From NCBI GenBank assembly GCA_001780985.1, contig MFJV01000001.1, positions 913,609 through 977,608 of the forward strand: DNA of 64,000 bases, read 5' to 3'. This DNA is from Candidatus Gottesmanbacteria bacterium RIFCSPLOWO2_01_FULL_43_11b (GTDB lineage: Bacteria > Patescibacteriota > Microgenomatia > UBA10105 > UBA927). The position numbers and the translations under genes were made by a program. The notes beneath the pieces are model-generated. The model ran no database searches and was not told where the DNA came from. It saw only the letters and a program-made list of their open reading frames with translations. Positions 4,207 through 64,000 of this stretch are shown in pieces (the first letter of the stretch is position 1; each line of letters begins with the position of its first letter).

Positions 4207-4766
4207 GAGCTATCATTGATTTTTGGATTTTTCTTTGCACTCTGACGGGATTCATTCCCAGCCATACGATACGCCTTTTTTTGTATAGAATGCTGTTTCG
4301 CGTTCGTGTAGGCCGCAACTCCTCTGTTCACTGGCGTGCGCAATTCAATCAACCGGCAGGAGTTTCTATTGGCCACAATACCATTATTGGGAACGATGCG
4401 TTTTTGGACGGACGAATGAAAAACTTTCTTATCTGGCGAAAAAAGCACGGCTACCCATTAACAATCGGCAACAATGTTTCGATTGCGGGTGAAGTTCGGA
4501 TTTATACAATGGAACATGATGTCGACGATCCCGATTTTGCCGAAATCGGTGCTCCGGTTGTCATCGATGACTACGTCGTCATCGGGACTCGGGTAACAAT
4601 TCTTCCCGGAGTAACCATTGGAAAAGGAGCAGTTATTGCCTCTGGTGCAGTCGTCACCAAAGATGTCCCCTCATTTACAGTCGTCGGCGGTGTCCCTGCT
4701 CAATTTATTCGCAACCGCAACAAAAATCTTCGCTACACGCTCAAATTCGCCAAACTCTTTCAATAA
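4203..4766 (+). CDS. sugar O-acetyltransferase, hexapeptide-repeat (LbH) family
   Basis: Tandem [LIV]-G-x-x-x-x hexapeptide repeats (IGNNVSIAGEVRI...); WcaF/NeuD-like; ATGA overlap with upstream gene. Confidence 0.75.
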   Translation: MRAIIDFWIFLCTLTGFIPSHTIRLFLYRMLFRVRVGRNSSVHWRAQFNQPAGVSIGHNTIIGNDAFLDGRMKNFLIWRKKHGYPLTIGNNVSIAGEVRIYTMEHDVDDPDFAEIGAPVVIDDYVVIGTRVTILPGVTIGKGAVIASGAVVTKDVPSFTVVGGVPAQFIRNRNKNLRYTLKFAKLFQ

Positions 4767-5632
4767 TGGATCTTTCTATAGTTATCGTAAGTTTCAATAC
4801 GAAAAAACTTCTTGACGACTGTCTTTCTTCTGTGGAACGGAGTCTCAAAGATACGAATGTTTCGTATGAAGTGATTGTGGTCGATAATGTTTCTATTGAC
4901 GGAACTCGGGAAATGCTCAAAAAGAAATATCCACAGGTTCAAACCGTATTGAATTCGGAAAATGTCGGATTCGGCAGAGCAAATAATCAAGGTACGAGAA
5001 AGGCAAAAGGGGAGTATGTTTTTTATTTAAATTCGGATACCATCGTTTTGAATAAAGCGATAGCTAAACTTCTCTCTTTTGCCCGTCAGCACCCGAAACA
5101 TTTCGTGGGTCCAAAACTCCTCAATCTTGATCGAAGCCCGCAATCATCCTGCGGTCCGTTTTTTTCTCTCCCTGTTGTCTTTGCAGCACTTTTTTTAAGA
5201 GGAGATCGTATAGGACTCACCCGCTGGTCTCCAACTCGAACGCGGAAAGTTAGTTGGGTATCGGGGGCGGCTTTGATGGGACCGAGAAAACAACTCCTCG
5301 ATAACCTCCTCTTTGATGAAAAAATATTCATGTATATGGAAGAAATAGACCTCCTGTATAGGGCAAGAAAAAGAGGCTTTCGAACACTCTTTTACCCTAA
5401 GAGTGTGATTATACATTTGGGAAGTGGTAGTTCTACCAACAAAAAGAAAGGCCCCGTCCTCAATATTTATCGGGGTCTCATCTACTTTTATAAAAAGCAT
5501 CATCCATCATGGAAGGTTCGCATACTTCTATTTTTGCTCAAGGCTAAAGCTGCCATTGCGTGGTCTATCGGGGTAGTCAGCGGCAATTCATATCTCAAGG
5601 AAACATATGCAGAAGCTTTTTGGATCGCTTAA
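4766..5632 (+). CDS. glycosyltransferase family 2
   Basis: MDLSIVIVSFN...VVDNVSIDGT (DxD-type GT-A N-terminus); paralogue of the GT2 at 10994. Confidence 0.8.
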   Translation: MDLSIVIVSFNTKKLLDDCLSSVERSLKDTNVSYEVIVVDNVSIDGTREMLKKKYPQVQTVLNSENVGFGRANNQGTRKAKGEYVFYLNSDTIVLNKAIAKLLSFARQHPKHFVGPKLLNLDRSPQSSCGPFFSLPVVFAALFLRGDRIGLTRWSPTRTRKVSWVSGAALMGPRKQLLDNLLFDEKIFMYMEEIDLLYRARKRGFRTLFYPKSVIIHLGSGSSTNKKKGPVLNIYRGLIYFYKKHHPSWKVRILLFLLKAKAAIAWSIGVVSGNSYLKETYAEAFWIA

Positions 5633-20930: not shown

Positions 20931-20999
20931 TTTTTATCACTTCGCAGATGGAATTGCTTTGCACAATGGTCTCCAAAGACTTCGACCTCTAATCCCGAC

Positions 21000-21050
21000 G
21001 TGGCGTACCTGCCTGCCGGCAGGCAGGTCTGTTCCACATCGGATGTGGAA
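21000..21050. repeat. composite palindromic repeat: GTGGCGTACCTG + 20-nt palindrome CCTGCCTGCCGGCAGGCAGG + TTCCACATCGGATGTGGAA
   Basis: The outer parts match 25607-25637 contiguously; the inner 20-nt palindrome matches 50899-50918. Confidence 0.8.
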
Positions 21051-25595: not shown

Positions 25596-25600
25596 AATTT

Positions 25601-25637
25601 CCCGATGTGGCATACCTGTTCCACATCGGATGTGGAA
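25601..25637. repeat. repeat copy CCCGATGTGGCATACCTG-TTCCACATCGGATGTGGAA, without the inner palindrome
   Basis: Near-identical to the 21000 copy minus the 20-nt insert; contains two mutually exclusive 9-bp stems. Confidence 0.8.
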
Positions 25638-25643
25638 TTTATT
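25619..25643 (+). terminator. candidate intrinsic terminator hairpin (TTCCACATC-G-GATGTGGAA followed by TTTATT)
   Basis: 9-bp inverted repeat plus a T-rich tract 24 nt after the ftsI stop; an alternative upstream pairing (25602-25629) is also possible. Confidence 0.4.
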
Positions 25644-26022
25644 AACGACTTTCCTTTACTTTTACCTCAAAACAGGATGATTTATTTAGAGTTATGATCG
25701 TATCGTGAGAAGTTATTTTTTCCACGAAATCACCACTAGCAATACCTTCAGTATTAACCCCACTACAGACACTTGGTGCTAACTGACAACGCAAACAGGT
25801 ATTAAAAGCTTCAGCGGCTCTTAACCTTTTCGCGCTAACCCTGAAAAAAGAGCTATCATCAAGTTTGTGAAAGGAAGCTCCACTGAATTCATTTAACTTG
25901 TGCGATCGTATTATTAGTTTTTCTATAATCATAAACTCTCCAAGCAAATATAGTGAGGAAGTATAGTAGGAGAGAGAGGAATTGTCAAGCCTATAGTGTT
26001 TTTTGGTTAAATTGGGGCTTAT

Positions 26023-26031
26023 TGGTATAAT
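26023..26031 (+). promoter_or_regulatory. extended -10 promoter element TGgTATAAT upstream of murE
   Basis: The TGN-TATAAT element ends 7 nt before the murE ATG at 26038, which implies a leaderless or very short-leader transcript. Confidence 0.4.
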
Positions 26032-26037
26032 AAACAC

Positions 26038-27195
26038 ATGCTCAGAAGCCTCAAGGGGCTATATCACCTTCTCGTTGCTGTACTTGCCAATATTTGGTTC
26101 GGTTTCCCCAGCCGCAGGCTTACCGTCATAGGTATAACAGGTACGGATGGCAAAACTACGACAACCACACTTATCTACGAAATTCTCAAAGCAGCAGGAT
26201 ACAAAGCCTCAATGATCACATCAGTTCATGCAGTGATTGCCGGAAAAAAGTATGATACAGGCTTCCATGTGACTACTCCGAATGCCTTTTGGGTTCAAAA
26301 ATACCTCCGGGAGGCAGTAAATGGTGGAGATACGCACATGGTTCTTGAAGTAACCTCACACGGACTGTCTCAATTCAGGGTCTTTGGAGTCAAATTTGCC
26401 GTTGGAGTCATTACAAACGTGACCCACGAGCACCTGGATTGGCACGGGACATTTGAACAGTACCTAAAAACTAAACTCTCTCTTCTTAAACGTGCAAAAA
26501 TTGCTGTCATTAATCGGGACGAACTCTCTTATCGCCCAAGGAATAAATACATAACATACGGCATTGTTCGTGAGGCGAGCGTAACGCCCAAAACATATCC
26601 TTTCAAAACAAAACTACTCGGTGATTTCAACCGATACAACATTCTTGCTGCCCTTGCCGCAACGTGTGAAGCATTAAGGGTAGATAAGGAGGTCGCGCTT
26701 AGAAGTATGCGAACCTTCCATGGTGTACCTGGGAGGATGGAGGTTGTGGCAACAAAACCATTTCGAGTAATTGTTGACTTTGCCCATACCCCCCATGCCA
26801 TTGACGTAGCACTCAAAGCGACAAAAAAGTTTACAAAAGGGAGAATAATCCATGTTTTTGGGTCAGCCGGTGCAAGAGACAGAACGAAACGCCCGATTAT
26901 GGGAGAAATGTCGGGAAAATATGCAAAAGTCATAGTTTTGACTGAAGAAGATTACCGGAAAGAGAACGTAAATGACATAATGGATGAAATTACAAAAGGA
27001 ATTTCACCAAATATTGACGTACATCGCTATCCAAACCGTCAGGACGCTATAAATTTTGCCATTTCAATCGCAAAACCAGGAGATACAGTGATAGTCACCG
27101 GCAAAGCGCATGAAAAAAGCCTTTGCCGCGGGACAAAAGAATACCCGTGGAGTGAACATGAGGCAATAAAAAAGGCGCTTAAAAAATATACATAA
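26038..27195 (+). CDS. murE: UDP-MurNAc-L-Ala-D-Glu:diamino acid ligase, lacking the usual N-terminal domain
   Basis: GITGTDGKTTT P-loop, DFAHTP motif and GSAGARDRTKRP C-terminal motif; only 385 aa. Confidence 0.75.
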   Translation: MLRSLKGLYHLLVAVLANIWFGFPSRRLTVIGITGTDGKTTTTTLIYEILKAAGYKASMITSVHAVIAGKKYDTGFHVTTPNAFWVQKYLREAVNGGDTHMVLEVTSHGLSQFRVFGVKFAVGVITNVTHEHLDWHGTFEQYLKTKLSLLKRAKIAVINRDELSYRPRNKYITYGIVREASVTPKTYPFKTKLLGDFNRYNILAALAATCEALRVDKEVALRSMRTFHGVPGRMEVVATKPFRVIVDFAHTPHAIDVALKATKKFTKGRIIHVFGSAGARDRTKRPIMGEMSGKYAKVIVLTEEDYRKENVNDIMDEITKGISPNIDVHRYPNRQDAINFAISIAKPGDTVIVTGKAHEKSLCRGTKEYPWSEHEAIKKALKKYT

Positions 27196-45010: not shown

Positions 45011-45319
45011 ATGATTAATCTTGAATGTCTAAGGGATTGTGAAGCCGCTTGTTGCAAAAAACAACATAACCACCGAGTGACATTTGACTTCAATGAACAA
45101 GAGGGTTCCATGTTTCAACAAAGAGGAGTTATATTAATTCCCCATGAGGGTGGAGGATTCACGATGCAAGAGGATTGTATTTTTTTACAAGGAAAATTAT
45201 GCACATTGCATGGACAACCAACTCAACCAAAATGCTGTGTAGATAACAAAGCAGGTGAAGAGTTATGTTTAAGGGTGAGAGAATCAGTTGCCGGTAAACG
45301 ATGGAGTGAAGTTGAATAA
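45011..45319 (+). CDS. YkgJ-family Cys-rich Zn/Fe-chelating protein (UPF0153)
   Basis: CLRDCEAACC N-terminal cysteine cluster and a second cluster (CTLHGQPTQPKCC); about 100 aa. Confidence 0.5.
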   Translation: MINLECLRDCEAACCKKQHNHRVTFDFNEQEGSMFQQRGVILIPHEGGGFTMQEDCIFLQGKLCTLHGQPTQPKCCVDNKAGEELCLRVRESVAGKRWSEVE

Positions 45320-45339
45320 TAGAAGTATGCGAACCTTCT

Positions 45340-48189
45340 ATGCCTACGAGGAGTCTCCTTGTAGGGAAGAAGCCCCAATTTGTCAAGAACAAAAGCGCCG
45401 TTTATAATAAGTGGATGGCGTTTAAATCAGTCTCACCACAAGTAAATTTTCCGGAGTTGGAGCAGGAAGTGCTCGAGTACTGGAAAAAGAATAAGATTTT
45501 TGAAAAATCAATTGAATCCCGGCCAGTTGAGAAATCCTGGACGTTTCTTGACGGCCCTCCGTTTATAACAGGCCTTCCGCACTACGGCACGTTACTTTCA
45601 AGTATTCCAAAAGATCTTTTCCCCAGATACTGGACAATGAAAGGGTATAGAGTACGAAGGGTCTGGGGTTGGGATTGCCACGGACTTCCTGCAGAAAACA
45701 AAGTTGAAGAGAAATTACACATAAAAAGAAAACGGGATATAGAAGAAAAAATCGGTGTCAAGAAATTTATTAACGAATGTAAACTCTACGTTAAAAATGT
45801 TTCTTCAGAGTGGGAATGGTACGTTGACCACATAGCCCGATGGGTTGATTTCCAAAACGCATATAAAACCATGGACAAAGACTACATGGAAACCGTGATA
45901 TGGGTATTTAAACAAATGTATGACAAAGGCTTGATTTATAAAGGGCTCCGCGTTTCCCTCTACTGCCCCCACTGCGGTACTCCCATTTCAAACTTTGAGG
46001 TTGCAATGGATGCGGATAACTATAAGGAAATGACGGAACCGACTGCAGTATTTATGTATCAGCTTGAAGATAAAAAAGATACGTATTTACTCGCCTGGAG
46101 TACGACACCATGGAATAAGATTGCCACCCCGGCACTCGCTGTTAATCCAAAACTTACGTATGTGAAAGTTAAACAAGGGGATAAATTTTTCATTTTGGCA
46201 AAACCCACGATGGCAATGATCAACGGTGAGTATAAAATTACTGAAGAATTTAAAGGAAAAGAACTCATCGGGAAAAAGTTTGTTAAACATTATGATTTTT
46301 ACTCATATGACCCCGGGATTATCATAGCAGGGGATTTTGTGACAGCAGAGGAAGGAACAGGAATTGTGACAATCGCAGCGTACGGTGAGGAAGATTTAGC
46401 GGTCATGCAGAAAGAAAAAATCCAACTTGTCCTCCATGTTGATGATGAAGGAATGATGAAAAGACAAGTGCCAAAATGGGCCGGGAAATACTATTTGGAC
46501 GTTGACTCTTTGGTTATCGATGATTTGAAATCACGCGGACTCATTTATAGAGTTGATAGCTACACTCACACAATTCCCACCTGCTGGAGATGCCACACAC
46601 GACTCTACTACGCTCCGCAGGATGCTTGGTATGTAAACGTGCAAAAACTGAAACCCGCCATGTATAAAACCAATGAAGCGGTCAATTGGTTTCCGGAACA
46701 CTTTAAGTACGGCAGATTCCTCAAAAGCATGGAGTCAGCGCCTGATTGGTGTATATCCAGGAGCCGATTTTGGGGTTCGCCCGTACCTGTTTGGGAATGC
46801 ACGAACGGCCATAGATTTGTACCGGGATCAATTAAAGAGCTTGAGAAAGCAAGCGGGGTAAAAATAACCGATCTCCACAAACCTGAGATAGATGAAATAA
46901 AAGTGACATGCAAGGAATGCAAAAAACCAGGCTCGAGAGTACCAGAGGTATTAGATAGCTGGATTGAGGCAGGAAGCGCATCATTTGCAGAGCGACATTT
47001 TCCCTTCAGTAAAGTCGATCTCAAATCCTTTTTCCCTCCTGACTTTATCGTTGAATACACAGGACAAATAAGAGCATGGTTTTACGTGCTCCATGTGATT
47101 TCTACTGCCCTTTTCGATAGCCATGCATTTAAAAACGTGGTTGTCTCCGGAGTTATTTTAGGTACAGACGGACGAAAGATGAGCAAAAACTATGGAAATT
47201 ACCCTGATCCAAAAGAGATGCTTCTCAAATACGGCGGTGACGCGCTAAGACTATATTTATTGGGTTCACCTGTCATGCACGGAGAAGACATTCGGATTTC
47301 TGAGGTGGAATACAGAGATCAAGTAAGGGGTTTGCTCCTCAAGCTTTGGAACGTGTATAACTTTTTTGTGACATATGCAAACGTTCATAAATGGAAACCG
47401 AACGGCAAAGAGTCGAAACATATTCTTGATCGGTGGATACATGCACGTCTTCAAAAACTCAATAGCGATGTGACAGAGGCACTTGAGGGATATGATTCTG
47501 TAGTAACTGTACGCGCTTATGAAGACTTCGTAAACGATCTATCGACCTGGTACATACGAAGAAGCAGAAATAGGATTGGTGATGAATTCTATCAAACGTG
47601 TTACCAAGTCTTAACGACTTTGTCACAACTTCTTGCACCAACTGCCCCGTTTATTGCTGAGGCAATATATAGAAATTTGACCGGCGAAGAGTCTGTGCAC
47701 CTCACTAGTTGGCCAACAGCAGCAAAATTACAACACTTCGATCTATCGATAGATGAAAGTATGAAGATTGTTCGACGAATCTGCGAGCTTGGACATGCAC
47801 AGAGAAAAGAAAATAAAATAAAAGTACGACAGCCACTTAGCCTTTGTAGTGTCAAAAACATCCAAATAGATCTTGATGATGAATATCTTGCATTGATTCG
47901 GGATGAACTAAATGTAAAAACCGTTCGTTTAGAGAAAGGTAAAGGGGAGATGGGTGTAGCTCTCGATACGAAATTAACTCCGGAACTTATGCAAGAAGGA
48001 CAGGCGAGAGAACTTATTCGTGAAATTCAGAAACTTCGCAAAGTTAAAGGATGTAGAATAGATGAACGGATCACCGTCACCCTTCCGAAATCGTTTAAGG
48101 AATTACCTAAGGATCTCATTGATTTTATTAAAAAAGAAACATTGACTGGTAGTCTTCTATGGGGAGAACAACTGACGATTGGATCATAA
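45340..48189 (+). CDS. ileS: isoleucine--tRNA ligase (type 2)
   Basis: DGPPFITGLPHYG HIGH-region variant, GWDCHGLP and KMSKNYGN motifs; the true start may be the internal Met (MAFKS...). Confidence 0.85.
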   Translation: MPTRSLLVGKKPQFVKNKSAVYNKWMAFKSVSPQVNFPELEQEVLEYWKKNKIFEKSIESRPVEKSWTFLDGPPFITGLPHYGTLLSSIPKDLFPRYWTMKGYRVRRVWGWDCHGLPAENKVEEKLHIKRKRDIEEKIGVKKFINECKLYVKNVSSEWEWYVDHIARWVDFQNAYKTMDKDYMETVIWVFKQMYDKGLIYKGLRVSLYCPHCGTPISNFEVAMDADNYKEMTEPTAVFMYQLEDKKDTYLLAWSTTPWNKIATPALAVNPKLTYVKVKQGDKFFILAKPTMAMINGEYKITEEFKGKELIGKKFVKHYDFYSYDPGIIIAGDFVTAEEGTGIVTIAAYGEEDLAVMQKEKIQLVLHVDDEGMMKRQVPKWAGKYYLDVDSLVIDDLKSRGLIYRVDSYTHTIPTCWRCHTRLYYAPQDAWYVNVQKLKPAMYKTNEAVNWFPEHFKYGRFLKSMESAPDWCISRSRFWGSPVPVWECTNGHRFVPGSIKELEKASGVKITDLHKPEIDEIKVTCKECKKPGSRVPEVLDSWIEAGSASFAERHFPFSKVDLKSFFPPDFIVEYTGQIRAWFYVLHVISTALFDSHAFKNVVVSGVILGTDGRKMSKNYGNYPDPKEMLLKYGGDALRLYLLGSPVMHGEDIRISEVEYRDQVRGLLLKLWNVYNFFVTYANVHKWKPNGKESKHILDRWIHARLQKLNSDVTEALEGYDSVVTVRAYEDFVNDLSTWYIRRSRNRIGDEFYQTCYQVLTTLSQLLAPTAPFIAEAIYRNLTGEESVHLTSWPTAAKLQHFDLSIDESMKIVRRICELGHAQRKENKIKVRQPLSLCSVKNIQIDLDDEYLALIRDELNVKTVRLEKGKGEMGVALDTKLTPELMQEGQARELIREIQKLRKVKGCRIDERITVTLPKSFKELPKDLIDFIKKETLTGSLLWGEQLTIGS

Positions 48190-50659: not shown

Positions 50660-50941
50660 ATGGCTCATATTAAAGCAGGCGGAACCACTCGAGCAAATAA
50701 AGATTCAGCCTCCAAGAGACTTGGAGTTAAAATTTATGGTGGACAACGCGCAATTGCTGGAAATATCATTGTTCGTCAAAAGGGAACAAAAGTATACCCG
50801 GGAGACGGGGTGAGTATTGGGAGAGATTTTACAATTTTTGCATTGACTTCTGGTTTAGTTGAATTTTTTACCAAAAGAGGGAAACAATACGTTTCGGTCC
50901 TGCCTGCCGGCAGGCAGGTCCTGCCCGCCAAGAGCCAATAA
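50660..50941 (+). CDS. rpmA: 50S ribosomal protein L27 with a 7-aa in-frame C-terminal insertion encoded by a palindromic repeat
   Basis: [17 protein letters not shown]-terminus; the C-terminus [16 protein letters not shown] contains the 21-nt repeat at 50896-50921. Confidence 0.85.
50899..50918. repeat. 20-nt perfect palindrome CCTGCCTGCCGGCAGGCAGG (copy 2, inside the rpmA 3' end)
   Basis: Identical to 21008-21027; flanked by CCTG direct repeats (tCCTG ... tCCTG). Confidence 0.8.
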
Positions 50942-50942
50942 C

Positions 50943-51752
50943 ATGGCCGACACCCAACAGGTTTTACATCTTGAGATTGATCTTGTTCAACCCAACCCAC
51001 TGCAGCCCCGTGGTTTGATTTCACCTGACTCCCTTGCAGAACTGGTCAACTCCATTAAAGAACACGGAATTATTGAGCCATTGGTTGTAGCTAAGACACC
51101 TGCTGGCTACCAAATTATTGCGGGGGAGAGACGGTGGCGGGCAAGTAAATTAGCAGGACTGTCAACCGTTCCCGTCATCCTTAAGGAAACATCAGCAAAA
51201 GGAATGCTCGAGATGGCATTGGTTGAAAACGTACAACGCGAGGATTTAAATCCCATTGACCGCGCGCAGGCATTTCAACGGTTAATTGAAGAATTTGGGT
51301 TGCCAGTTTCAGAGATTGCAAAACGCATTGGAAAAAGCGAATCGTATGTGAGCAACACAATGCGTCTTTTAGCCCTTCCTGATGCGATAAAAGACGGATT
51401 AATTTCAGGTTCTATTTCTGAAGGGCATGCGCGGGCAATTGCAGGCCTTGGTGATGTCAAACTCATGGTGGATGCGTATAAAACAATTCTTACGGAAAGC
51501 GCGTCTGTTCGTAGAGCAGAAGATTTAGCACGAAGACTCAAAGCGCAAATAAATAAAAAACCTGTCCATAAATTACAGCGAATTCACAGCGACGAGCTGG
51601 ATAACATGGCAAAGGGCATGGCGCAGGCAGTCAACGGACTCGTTAAAATTACCCAATCGAAAGTCGAAGCACGATTGGTCTTTGTCATCCGTGGCAACCT
51701 CGAATCAACAAGCAAAATCCTCAAGGATATAAATAAAAAACTCACCTCTTAA
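50943..51752 (+). CDS. parB: chromosome partitioning protein ParB/Spo0J
   Basis: IAGERRWRA ParB-box motif and HTH region; ATG at 50943. Confidence 0.85.
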   Translation: MADTQQVLHLEIDLVQPNPLQPRGLISPDSLAELVNSIKEHGIIEPLVVAKTPAGYQIIAGERRWRASKLAGLSTVPVILKETSAKGMLEMALVENVQREDLNPIDRAQAFQRLIEEFGLPVSEIAKRIGKSESYVSNTMRLLALPDAIKDGLISGSISEGHARAIAGLGDVKLMVDAYKTILTESASVRRAEDLARRLKAQINKKPVHKLQRIHSDELDNMAKGMAQAVNGLVKITQSKVEARLVFVIRGNLESTSKILKDINKKLTS

Positions 51753-55594: not shown

Positions 55595-55948
55595 TTGACA
55601 AATTATTGTTTCCTTGACAAAATAGCGCATATGCCAAATATTGAAGCGCTTTATGACGGAGTTGCACATACCGTTGATTGTGTGAATGTGAAGATCAAAA
55701 ATGGAGGACGGGTTGTCATCCTTGAAGTGCCCAAAGGATCTGTTTGGGGATTACGTGACCTTATCCGGCACGAATCCTATGGTATGCAAATAACTCCGGA
55801 GAGCGAAGGGGATGCAACTACTGAAGATGTTATTTCATTGGATGCAAGGCGGACACCGATAGCCGGACCCATGAAGATTTTGAAAAAGGATCAAGACGGA
55901 CGCCGTGTAGCAATAAAAGTCCGCCGCTTCCGCCCGTTCCCAATATGA
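55595..55948 (+). CDS. hypothetical protein; its C-terminal 10 codons are duplicated downstream of the next gene
   Basis: ORF; the C-terminus IKVRRFRPFPI* is re-encoded as IKVRRFHPFPAT* at 56684-56722. Confidence 0.4.
   Translation: MTNYCFLDKIAHMPNIEALYDGVAHTVDCVNVKIKNGGRVVILEVPKGSVWGLRDLIRHESYGMQITPESEGDATTEDVISLDARRTPIAGPMKILKKDQDGRRVAIKVRRFRPFPI
55912..55941 (+). repeat. 30-nt direct repeat (left copy) AATAAAAGTCCGCCGCTTCCGCCCGTTCCC
   Basis: 27/30 identity with 56683-56713; brackets the lipoprotein gene. Confidence 0.75.
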
Positions 55949-56649
55949 GACGACCCGGTCCTGAAATTATTATACTGAGCAGTTTATTCCTTGGTTCGTG
56001 TAATCCTGTTCGAGCAACACAACAACCTGAAATTATTGATACACCCTCTAGGTTTACTCCCGCTCTGCCGATTCCTTCAATGACCCCTAAGCCAGAACAA
56101 ATCCCCTCAGCCGGTATTCATCAAATAGAACCAGGAGAAATTTTAAATTTGGAGCATTTTACGTTTGAAAATCAGATGAGAGGGTATTCGGTTCGGATAG
56201 TCACCCTCCAACTTAACGAGGTGTCAAAACGGTATGACGTACCATTAGATGTGGGACAAGATACAACTATAATCCTCTCACCAGAAATTTTTGAAGGTGA
56301 GAATGGAAGCGCCGTACGTTTTTTCGACGAAGAGAATGGCAAACAACGCATCGAAATTTCAGGCGGACTGTTTGAACAAGTTGTTTCGTTAATTACGGGT
56401 AGAGTTCCAAGAGACTTAAGAGATCAAACGCTTTTATCGGTTATGTTAAGTGAAAAAATGATTTTTGCCCTTGCTCGCATTGCTGAGCAACGGGGACAAC
56501 TTCCTGAGGGTTCATCTCAAATTATTGAAAGCCAGTACATAGAAGATATACTAAATTTGGAAGCAAAATTAGTGGCAGGGATGCAGATTTTGGGAAATCC
56601 TCTTCCTGAACCTGCCGAACCTCCCCCCGGCAACCCTCCCTCTGCTTAA
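55945..56649 (+). CDS. lipoprotein of unknown function
   Basis: Signal peptide with the lipobox LFLGSC; Pro-rich C-terminus; flanked by 30-nt direct repeats. Confidence 0.55.
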   Translation: MRRPGPEIIILSSLFLGSCNPVRATQQPEIIDTPSRFTPALPIPSMTPKPEQIPSAGIHQIEPGEILNLEHFTFENQMRGYSVRIVTLQLNEVSKRYDVPLDVGQDTTIILSPEIFEGENGSAVRFFDEENGKQRIEISGGLFEQVVSLITGRVPRDLRDQTLLSVMLSEKMIFALARIAEQRGQLPEGSSQIIESQYIEDILNLEAKLVAGMQILGNPLPEPAEPPPGNPPSA

Positions 56650-56682
56650 CATTAGAAGTATGCGAACCTTCTCTGTCTTTCT

Positions 56683-56713
56683 AATAAAAGTCCGCCGCTT
56701 CCACCCTTTTCCC
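56683..56713 (+). repeat. 30-nt direct repeat (right copy)
   Basis: aataaaagtccgccgcttccacccttttccc. Confidence 0.75.
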
Positions 56714-56714
56714 G

Positions 56715-57128
56715 CTACTTAGCCTGCGGGACGTAGGTAATTCCCACTCCTTTAATTGTTTTAACACTCTCCGCGAGGGTTGGATCAACAGATTTTAATT
56801 TATTTCGCAATTGAGTTATGATTCCTGTGGTAAGCTTCAGGACTTTGAATGCTTCATATTCATTTTCGGGGAGTGGGGTTGACGGAAAGAGTAATCGAAA
56901 TACATCTGTGCGTGAGAGAATTTCATCGGGATGGGCTATTAAATGCGAGAAGAGCTTACTCCGTTGTTTTGAAAGTCGTACCCTTGATTCTCCATTTGAG
57001 AGCATACGTTTTCTGGGCGCATAATAAATGCTTTTCTTTCCATTTTGGTTTAGTTGAATAAGACCTTCCCCCTCCGGCGCTTTCATAAATTTATTATAGC
57101 AGAGCGCATATTGATAACAATAATTCAA
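56715..57128 (-). CDS. winged-helix DNA-binding protein (OmpR/PhoB C-terminal-type trans_reg_C domain, stand-alone)
   Basis: RVRLSKQRSKLFSHLIAHPDEILSRTDVF...KLTTGIITQLRNKLK...IKGVGITYV matches the OmpR-type effector domain; the start may be an internal Met. Confidence 0.55.
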   Translation of the reverse strand: MNYCYQYALCYNKFMKAPEGEGLIQLNQNGKKSIYYAPRKRMLSNGESRVRLSKQRSKLFSHLIAHPDEILSRTDVFRLLFPSTPLPENEYEAFKVLKLTTGIITQLRNKLKSVDPTLAESVKTIKGVGITYVPQAK

Positions 57129-63134: not shown

Positions 63135-64000
63135 GAGTTGCTCTAATCCGGGGTAAATTTCTCAACGCCTACGAAATGCAGTTATTCGAAAAATTGCCCC
63201 GCAAATATAAAATTACTGCTTTTGCCTCACTCACTCCGTTCCACGGGAAGTTTTCGTTTCCCGTAATAAAACTTCCTTCCCCTATGGACCTACCGGATTT
63301 TTCATACAAAATGCCGATTTTAAATAGATTATTCATCGATGCGCATTATCTTTTTGGATTAGAAGAGAAACTTAGAGGTTTCGATCTTGTGCACAGTGCG
63401 GAAAACTACTATCACTACACCCAACAAGCGCTCAATGCAAAAAAACATGGATACGTTAAGAAAGTTGTCGCTACGGTATTGGAAAATATTCCGTTTAACA
63501 ATGAAGGCATTTGGGGAAGACGCGCGTTTAAAAAACGGGCACGGCAAGAACTCGATCACATAATTTCGTTAACACAAAAAACGAAAGACGCCCTTATTTT
63601 GGAAGGATGCGAACCTTCTAAAATTACTGTCATCGGCCATGCGATTGATACGGATAGATTCACGCCCGTGCCTATTCGGAAAACAAAACGTCTTGTGATT
63701 CTTTTTGTCGGTAGATTGGAAGAGGAAAAAGGAGTACTGGACATTGTTGAGGCAGCAAAACTACTGCATAACGACAATCTAAAATTTATTATGATCGGCA
63801 CGGGCAGTAAAAAAAATCTGCTTCCAAAATTTATTACACAGAAAGTTGTGTCGTACAAAAATATGCCACGGGAGTATCAGGCGGCTGATATTTTTGTCGC
63901 ACCAAGTAAACCGATAAAAACATGGGATGAGCAGTATAACACTGCACTTTTAGAAGCCCAAGCATCCGGACTTCCAATCGTAACAACTAAAACCGGAGGA
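63131..64000 (+). CDS. glycosyltransferase family 4 (3'-truncated by the window end)
   Basis: ATG 63131 in ATGA overlap; hand translation gives an open frame to the window end, which is why it is absent from the ORF track; C-terminal ...LEAQASGLPIVTT motif. Confidence 0.7.
   Translation, partial: MRVALIRGKFLNAYEMQLFEKLPRKYKITAFASLTPFHGKFSFPVIKLPSPMDLPDFSYKMPILNRLFIDAHYLFGLEEKLRGFDLVHSAENYYHYTQQALNAKKHGYVKKVVATVLENIPFNNEGIWGRRAFKKRARQELDHIISLTQKTKDALILEGCEPSKITVIGHAIDTDRFTPVPIRKTKRLVILFVGRLEEEKGVLDIVEAAKLLHNDNLKFIMIGTGSKKNLLPKFITQKVVSYKNMPREYQAADIFVAPSKPIKTWDEQYNTALLEAQASGLPIVTTKTGG

Follow-up and report, generated by a model that had tools for sequence, protein, structure and literature searches.

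A dispersed 23-nt hairpin in a Gottesmanbacteria genome is very probably the REP family of a RAYT-like Y1 HUH transposase

The closest described counterparts of the element considered here are the REP (repetitive extragenic palindromic) elements of Proteobacteria and their REP-associated tyrosine transposases (RAYTs), such as the E. coli REP-BIME with TnpA_REP (structure 4ER8) and the Stenotrophomonas REPtron Sm. GTAG and CGTC tags define the two described REP superfamilies (PMC3733652, PMC8266576), GTAG is essential for the RAYTs studied (PMC8266576; PMC3733652), and both bulged group-2 and perfect group-3 REPs have been studied biochemically (PMC8266576). REPs also occur inside genes, as do Rickettsia palindromic elements (RPEs), and both are described as insertions that add residues, with dimers encoding 20-30 residues and RPE-1 more (PMC3733652). 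The mechanisms by which REPs disseminate are poorly understood (PMC8266576). Here we analyze a repeat, the 19-mer AGAAGTATGCGAACCTTCT, in a stretch of 64,000 nucleotides (the window) from Candidatus Gottesmanbacteria bacterium RIFCSPLOWO2_01_FULL_43_11b (contig MFJV01000001.1, positions 913,609 to 977,608). We conclude that this motif very probably represents the REP family of a domesticated RAYT, a Y1 HUH single-strand DNA endonuclease, in the ~1 Mb genome of this organism.

With up to 3 mismatches allowed on both strands, AGAAGTATGCGAACCTTCT is found at five window sites, and its 12-mer core, ATGCGAACCTTC, occurs nowhere else in the window. No match appeared in any of 100 dinucleotide-preserving shuffles of the window. 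The first-pass annotation was thus right that the repeat is real and not due to chance, and it counted four copies, having missed the minus-strand copy at 5511-5529. Further copies were collected from scans of public genomes and metagenomes, from which chance matches and one unrelated conserved gene were removed. The rule on flanks used for picking members is partly circular, yet the score distribution is bimodal, and 53 distinct copies were kept. Their consensus is an imperfect palindrome of 23 nt, A-T-R-GAAG-(T/G)-ATGCGAACCTTC-Y-A-T, with conserved flank pairs T(0)-A(20) and A(-1)-T(21), R at position 1, and Y at position 19. The ends therefore form an inverted repeat, as first annotated, of 7-8 bp instead of the 5 bp given then. 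Sequences of 23-25 nt fold with a stem of 7-8 bp at -3.3 to -6.0 kcal/mol (z of -4.7 to -7.4), and none of 200 shuffles folds as well. Two stem positions, T6.C14 and A7.A13, are mismatched when the hairpin is drawn as 8 bp with a GCG triloop. In 85 kb of DNA of this species, copies are 0-1 base off the 17-mer core and none is 2-3 bases off, with 4-mismatch matches at the level of chance. Density is about 1 copy per 13 kb, with 6 copies in 80.4 kb of contiguous sequence around the window. All frames of the motif are free of stop codons, except where T-A-G arises at its left edge. An assembly or adapter artefact was rejected, given that copies lie in frame in conserved genes and are common to orthologous loci of independent assemblies; so was a phage origin, with just 3 single matches in 2.9 million viral contigs.

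The key to the identity of the motif is the gene around which it clusters. Loci with 4-5 motif copies within ~1 kb (contigs L116, L011+L006, and L005) all encode one protein of 246 amino acids with HFH and RYIHLNP motifs; the gene in motif clusters of related contigs encodes 231-246 amino acids, and both motifs are invariant in an alignment of 24 sequences. The best NCBIfam family is REP_Tyr_transpos, the REP-associated tyrosine transposases (59.7 bits, E value of 2.9e-16), and a profile built from the 24 homologues has 4ER8, E. coli TnpA_REP, as its sole sequence match in the PDB. The AlphaFold model of the homologue from the window species, P0140 (pLDDT 87.6, pTM 0.86), again has 4ER8, a RAYT bound to its REP hairpin, as its top Foldseek match (E value of 2.8e-8, TMt of 0.72), followed by the IS200/IS605 transposases ISDra2 TnpA and IS608 TnpA. 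There is no homologue of this gene within the window. The window's Mur ligase (P0001, OGG24556.1) matches a protein of Candidatus Gottesmanbacteria RIFCSPLOWO2_01_FULL_43 at 100% identity. P0140 (OGG23653.1) and this Mur ligase are on the same longest contig of 1,020,299 bp and in the same accession series, which places the RAYT gene in the window's genome, ~900 genes away. All contigs that carry the P0140 gene show the same neighboring genes, and in both L005 and L134 a terminator lies downstream with a REP copy after it; a single genomic context wherever the gene was seen would be as expected for a single-copy RAYT. The clustering of the motif on a RAYT-like gene, the copies flanking that gene, and its presence in the same genome together point to a REP family with its RAYT. 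The earlier suggestion of a site for protein recognition or recombination therefore pointed in the right direction, with the decisive context lying at the RAYT gene elsewhere in the genome.

The P0140 locus (L134) has one copy 5 nt before the ATG, two internal copies, and one that overlaps the stop codon, and one copy on this contig sits after a hairpin resembling an intrinsic terminator. With further copies in pheT and neighboring genes, L134 has 8 copies in 20.7 kb, compared to 6 in 80.4 kb around the window. L116, L005, L011, L141, and L142 are arranged likewise, with repeat copies beside the RAYT gene. This gene holds internal REP copies at three fixed positions (2-3 copies within the coding sequence), and the peptides that these encode fall in loops modeled with lower confidence in P0140; internal site 2 lies in a loop of ~17-22 residues without counterpart in outgroup RAYTs. 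Orthologues of only 64-67% amino acid identity have diverged in the codons beside the internal copies, with the copies themselves identical in DNA, and thus selection or ongoing homogenization acts on the DNA itself. Conservation at the DNA level, independent of reading frame, had already been proposed for the window copies, and it is upheld here.

RAYT homologues of other Microgenomates have odd peptides at the same three fixed positions, and the odd peptides of each RAYT are one hairpin translated in different frames (e.g., GSLRNF twice with EVYETS; KVSDTL twice; KDAILP with GRIASF). The hairpin GGGAAGTTT-ACG-AAACTTCCC, predicted from the peptides of P0165, was confirmed in DNA, with five occurrences in or around the P0165 gene and one in a family 4 glycosyltransferase (GT4) gene, and TGTAAAGTATC-W-GATACTTTACA, predicted from the peptides of P0178, was found four times in and around that Collierbacteria gene. 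The commonest 14-mers of each locus come from these hairpins. Further members of the family point to a perfect palindrome, GGAAGGAT-GCG-ATCCTTCC, of which the window motif is a version with two stem mismatches. That sister lineages have hairpins of their own, as read from their genes, is as expected from co-evolution of REP and RAYT.

Several RAYT/REP pairs coexist in these Candidate Phyla Radiation (CPR) lineages, as contig L124 has a second, distant Y1 transposase at 560-1350 (225 amino acids, 31% identity) flanked by its own hairpin, CACACCTYTAAGGTGTG. It was rejected as the partner of the motif given this different hairpin; it is followed by a tRNA gene and by two direct copies of the GAAGTATGCGAACCTTC REP. 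The motif and the same RAYT are also carried by three metagenome-assembled genomes labelled 'uncultured Gammaproteobacteria' (CAYNWD, CAYVAR, and CAYSOR; L001-L018), in which the motif is identical although GC content ranges from 44% to 53%. Contig L004 of CAYSOR has, in addition, a locus orthologous to a window region encoding a family 2 glycosyltransferase (GT2). Gene content and RAYT homology suggest that these three genomes carry a wrong label and probably belong to relatives of the window's CPR organism.

The link to one transposase gene bears on two explanations that dispense with a RAYT. The motif could be the site of a chromosome-organizing or global regulatory host protein, comparable to parS, matS, or an operator, with the transposase-like gene merely one of its targets. 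Its sharp conservation, the retention of orthologous copies between genomes, and a location inside genes typical of parS would suit such a site, and a ParB homologue (ParB_N and HTH_ParB domains) is encoded in the window at ~50859-51752. However, the motif clusters most strongly at the RAYT gene itself, and it varies between close lineages along with the RAYT, whereas the sites of conserved proteins stay constant. The motif is also asymmetric, unlike parS, and the parS consensus, sought with up to 2 mismatches, is absent from the window. We consider a host-protein site very improbable. A Ter-, parS-, or dif-like site in particular was rejected, the motif being too dense as well as asymmetric and lineage-variable.

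The second explanation, raised in the first-pass annotation, is a DNA-uptake sequence resembling the DNA-uptake sequences (DUS) of Neisseria or the uptake signal sequences (USS) of Pasteurellaceae, for which a receptor preferring motif DNA would let the motif accrue by point mutation and biased uptake. CPR bacteria generally encode competence machinery, and as in DUS and USS, the motif is conserved at the DNA level, its intragenic copies are independent of frame and length-neutral, and some copies occur in inverted pairs. Against this, an uptake sequence gives no reason for 4-5 copies in and around one Y1 transposase gene, nor for a motif that changes in step with that gene between lineages. 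Known DUS and USS occur roughly once per kb, ~10 times more densely than the motif here, and the 17-23 specified bases of the motif far exceed known uptake cores. Gradual mutational drive should, moreover, leave a halo of intermediates, and there are no copies with 2-3 mismatches. We give this explanation almost no credence.

Comparison with described systems places the element closest to REP/RAYT. It shares with the proteobacterial systems a short hairpin repeat dispersed on the chromosome, a Y1 HUH homologue that is apparently encoded at a single locus and whose gene is flanked by repeat copies, a lineage-specific repeat that co-varies with the transposase, and 4ER8 as best structural match. 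The stem with two mismatches resembles a bulged group-2 REP, and the relatives of the GGAAGGAT-GCG-ATCCTTCC type (8 bp with a 3-nt loop) resemble group-3 (PMC8266576). The differences are that the copies flanking the gene are direct instead of inverted, that the RAYT gene has 2-3 copies at fixed positions in its own coding sequence, that a large share of copies is intragenic and replaces native codons at constant length, that the copies are nearly invariant (0-1 mismatches), and that the host is a CPR bacterium. IS200/IS605 elements (IS608 and ISDra2) have the same Y1 HUH fold, and their enzymes recognize subterminal single-strand hairpins and act preferentially on the lagging-strand template. 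In the present case, the top strand of the motif is on the strand of positive GC skew in 25 cases versus 10, a weak bias in counts that are not independent. In contrast to those multicopy elements, whose tnpA is moved between distinct left and right ends by peel-and-paste, the gene here has one context, the same hairpin occurs at both of its ends and inside it, and the dispersed units are hairpins of only 23 nt. The window has five such hairpins and no tnpA, and intragenic copies are not insertions.

Several observations weigh against assigning the motif to a REP family with its RAYT. The base-frequency table of the 53 copies has no conserved GTAG or CGTC tetranucleotide at the foot of the hairpin, only A/T flanks. 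Inverted doublets (REPINs) exist but are a minority, most copies being singletons. The Y1_Tnp family of Pfam is narrowly missed (22.6 bits, cut-off 23), and the NCBIfam score falls below its cut-off of 80 bits. The RAYT gene lies outside the window, and we infer both the genome-wide copy number and the single-copy status. The pairing of P0140 with the hairpin is drawn from sequences and a structural model. Finally, many copies are intragenic and length-neutral, which known cut-and-join chemistry does not explain.

The arrangement of copies varies. Inverted pairs occur in L009, L010, L071/L092, L086, L104, and L077, and direct pairs in L028, L114, and L124. Direct REP pairs with a conserved spacer of ~28 nt (catggctNNgg...aggcat) are found in several unrelated contigs (L028 1559-1622, L114 936-999, L124 1501-1565, L094, L038, and L010), possibly representing a composite version of the element. 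The left edge, CCAGGCATGGAAG, is itself repeated in L010.

All five copies in the window are singletons, and their flanks are unrelated to each other; the copies are therefore not derived from a single duplicated gene segment, an origin that the first-pass annotation had named as one that would refute its reading. Three of the five are intragenic, one of them antisense. This is the minus-strand copy (5509..5531, 19-mer at 5511-5529, aataGAAGTATGCGAACCTTCcatg on the minus strand, last base C), which lies in the C-terminal coding part of the GT2 gene (ORF 4766-5632) and encodes WKVRILL. The GT2 orthologue in L004 has the same copy in the same place, and the protein is conserved past it (KAKAAIAW..YLKETYAEAF), showing that the copy is coding. 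The plus-strand copy at 26699..26721 (19-mer at 26701-26719; 1 mismatch, last base C) is sense-oriented in a gene for a MurE-like Mur ligase (26038-27195) and encodes (L)RSMRTF(H), which a domain search places in the linker between Mur_ligase_M and Mur_ligase_C. Also on the plus strand and sense-oriented is the copy at 63599..63621 (19-mer at 63601-63619; 2 mismatches), a G6 variant, GGAAGGATGCGAACCTTCT, that encodes LEGCEPS in a GT4 gene (start at ~63131, running off the window; 11709-12788 of L143). The same variant occurs in L134 at 10150, 18872, and 18926. Two of these form a direct pair 54 nt apart (L134 18872-18942, also in L053) inside a 159-amino-acid ORF, encoding the repeated peptides ..PQKDANLP.. 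and ..PEKDANLL.. in a Pro/Thr-rich linker.

The remaining two window copies are intergenic, on the plus strand, and exact. The copy at 45319..45341 (19-mer at 45321-45339; ATAGAAG...CTTCTAT) has a perfect 7-bp stem, folds as a hairpin of -3.3 kcal/mol (z = -7.4), and lies before the ileS promoter region, with its 19-mer starting 1 nt past the stop codon of ORF 45011-45319; the identical locus is present in metagenome contigs L037 and L125. The copy at 56652..56674 (19-mer at 56654-56672) follows the stop codon of ORF 55945-56649 (plus strand) in a convergent gap facing ORF 56715-57128 (minus strand). The contexts given earlier for the sites at 26701, 45321, and 63601 are essentially correct, as is the position of the 56654 copy between genes after a stop codon, from which it is separated by 4 nt. 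The ATG at 45340, previously taken as the start of ileS, is probably not the true start, since that ORF enters its tRNA-synthetase domain at residue 44; the ATG at ~45425 appears likelier from the sequence. Directly upstream of the latter, at ~45390-45418, is a near-consensus sigma-70-type promoter-like sequence (TTGTCA-17 nt-TATAAT), and a start at this ATG suggests a very short or absent leader. Just 3' of the 45321 copy, at 45343-45365, is a hairpin with a 10-bp stem, CCTACGAGGA-GTC-TCCTTGTAGG.

The position of two window copies just past stop codons, where the first-pass annotation saw a possible small-RNA site or regulatory hairpin at gene 3' ends, invites the view that the motif acts primarily in RNA, as a terminator, stabilizer, or processing site. 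REPs do act on mRNA in other bacteria (PMC3733652), and one copy of L134 follows a terminator-like hairpin. However, gene interiors contain at least 15 of the 53 copies overall and three of the five in the window, in both orientations; the closing pair has no RNA-type wobble preference (9 G-T versus 12 A-C among the 53 copies), no U-tract follows the hairpin, and Rfam has nothing at the copy sites. A primary function in RNA is thus hardly to be expected. An effect on RNA could be secondary for some copies near gene ends, while an RNA role leaves the origin of the copies unexplained. Other readings of this kind were rejected: a tRNA T-arm mimic or known RNA family, since the sole Rfam match in the window is one tRNA away from the copies; a promoter or operator (a sigma-E-like -35 element, T7-like promoter, or leaderless start signal), as nothing is conserved downstream of the motif; and the 'ATG' beside many copies as a start codon, as it is the palindromic flank.

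Unusually, many of the copies occupy essential genes, where some 20 bases are replaced and gene length is kept. At least 15 of the 53 distinct copies lie well inside genes (defined as at least 30 codons within ORFs of at least 200 codons with recognizable homologues), in three sense and three antisense frames, and the genes concerned include pheT, polX, murC, folD, the murE-like gene, and those of an AAA+ protein and a PGI-like protein. Wherever an orthologue with an empty site is available, the alignment is gapless (5 of 5 sites). At the murE-like site, the orthologues in L139 and L140 (79-82% identity) have the same length as the window gene and unrelated DNA at this position, so that the copy must have replaced sequence there rather than been inserted. 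In folD, L017 and L078 differ at two sites, each having the motif where the other has none. The polX site is filled in L043 and empty in the window's own genome, and the murC site is filled in L025 and L013 and empty in the window and L139. Across its copy, murC also aligns without gaps to Acinetobacter MurC. The equal length of universal homologues at these sites excludes an ancient insertion followed by decay in the orthologues.

These alignments also decide against an ordinary REP or miniature transposon that spreads by insertion only, with intragenic copies as in-frame insertions like the RPEs. Such a process has precedent in the residue-adding intragenic REPs (PMC3733652), and as in those elements, the palindromic repeats here lie in coding genes, including genes for DNA repair and tRNA synthetases, where they are tolerated in loops and linkers (PMC3733652). 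The ~17-22-residue loop around RAYT internal site 2, absent from outgroup RAYTs, would suit insertion as well. Unlike those elements, though, the copies leave gene length unchanged at every site tested, and an element of 23 nt cannot go in in frame. We regard spread by insertion alone as most unlikely.

For a REP family acted on by its RAYT, a mechanism may be sketched by analogy to E. coli TnpA_REP. The RAYT would bind the folded single-stranded hairpin when it is exposed, e.g., on the lagging-strand template, and would then cut and rejoin the DNA beside the hairpin, so that copies spread and are homogenized. The orientation bias fits action on the lagging-strand template weakly. Because copies are length-neutral, their spread cannot be simple peel-and-paste insertion. 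Together with the internal hairpin of the RAYT gene, which changes with the repeat of the lineage, the length-neutral copies argue for a conversion-type process over insertion. The most economical candidate, which we favor although we hold it to be somewhat less likely than not, is an overwrite that is templated and conversion-like (copy-choice or a short conversion tract) and is followed by filtering through selection. Partial similarity of the target may seed the overwrite, with selection keeping tolerated peptides. Empty sites match the consensus at ~42% of positions, compared to ~27% expected, as a preference for certain targets or selection for similar peptides might produce. An asymmetry in target similarity between the left and right halves seemed significant at four sites and weakened once murC was added, so that it is a hint only. 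In its fullest form, the proposal would have the RAYT drive a templated, length-preserving overwrite of ~20 nt that homogenizes all copies and rewrites codons in essential genes, with the three internal copies of the RAYT gene as master copies or the commonest targets in cis. We consider this version rather unlikely as it stands; if true, it would be a mode of repeat propagation by an HUH enzyme that has not been described before. The enrichment of copies at the RAYT gene could also result from cis-preferential action on a few tolerant loops, or from autoregulation or a master-copy role.

The window contains other repeats and features in addition to the motif. A second palindromic repeat, CCTGCCTGCCGGCAGGCAGG, GC-rich (the genome is 42% GC) and perfect, is present at 21008-21027 and 50899-50918; one copy is intergenic and the other falls within the 3' end of the L27 (rpmA) reading frame. 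Set against 25609-25637, which has the same flanks, 20998-21050 seems to contain a genuine insertion of 20 nt, the 21008 copy, with duplication of CTG. The hairpin TTCCACATC-G-GATGTGGAA occurs at 21030-21050 and 25617-25637, in both cases intergenic, upstream of plus-strand genes, and preceded by a common gtggcRtacctg; it may represent a small repeat family or a regulatory hairpin. A direct repeat of 30 nt, beginning AATAAAAGTCCGCCGCTTCCRCCC, is found at 55912-55941 and 56683-56712, the second copy 10 nt downstream of the 56654 REP copy. Between the genes for a penicillin-binding protein and the MurE-like protein, ~440 nt (25596-26037) have stop codons in all three plus-strand frames, which is unusually long for a compact genome, and the Mur ligase that follows is without an N-terminal Mur_ligase domain. 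GC skew is positive across the whole window, indicating that no replication origin lies inside it.

The REP-RAYT kind of system is already known, and intragenic REPs have been reported before. In the literature searched, we found no description of REP/RAYT systems in CPR bacteria, of RAYT genes with their own REP at conserved internal positions, or of length-neutral codon replacement by a REP. The footprint of spread can be read directly in this case, where genes whose length is constant across all bacteria (murC, folD, polX, and the Mur ligase gene) carry a 23-nt hairpin in place of native codons. The question of how REPs spread thus becomes directly testable, with P0140, the 23-mer, and filled alleles matched to empty ones as substrates. 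An HUH enzyme that overwrites short tracts, if that is indeed what it does, would be of interest to genome engineers, and binning and strain tracking gain sharp markers in the lineage-specific hairpins. For the Candidate Phyla Radiation, the finding very probably extends REP-RAYT systems to ~1 Mb genomes with almost no intergenic space.

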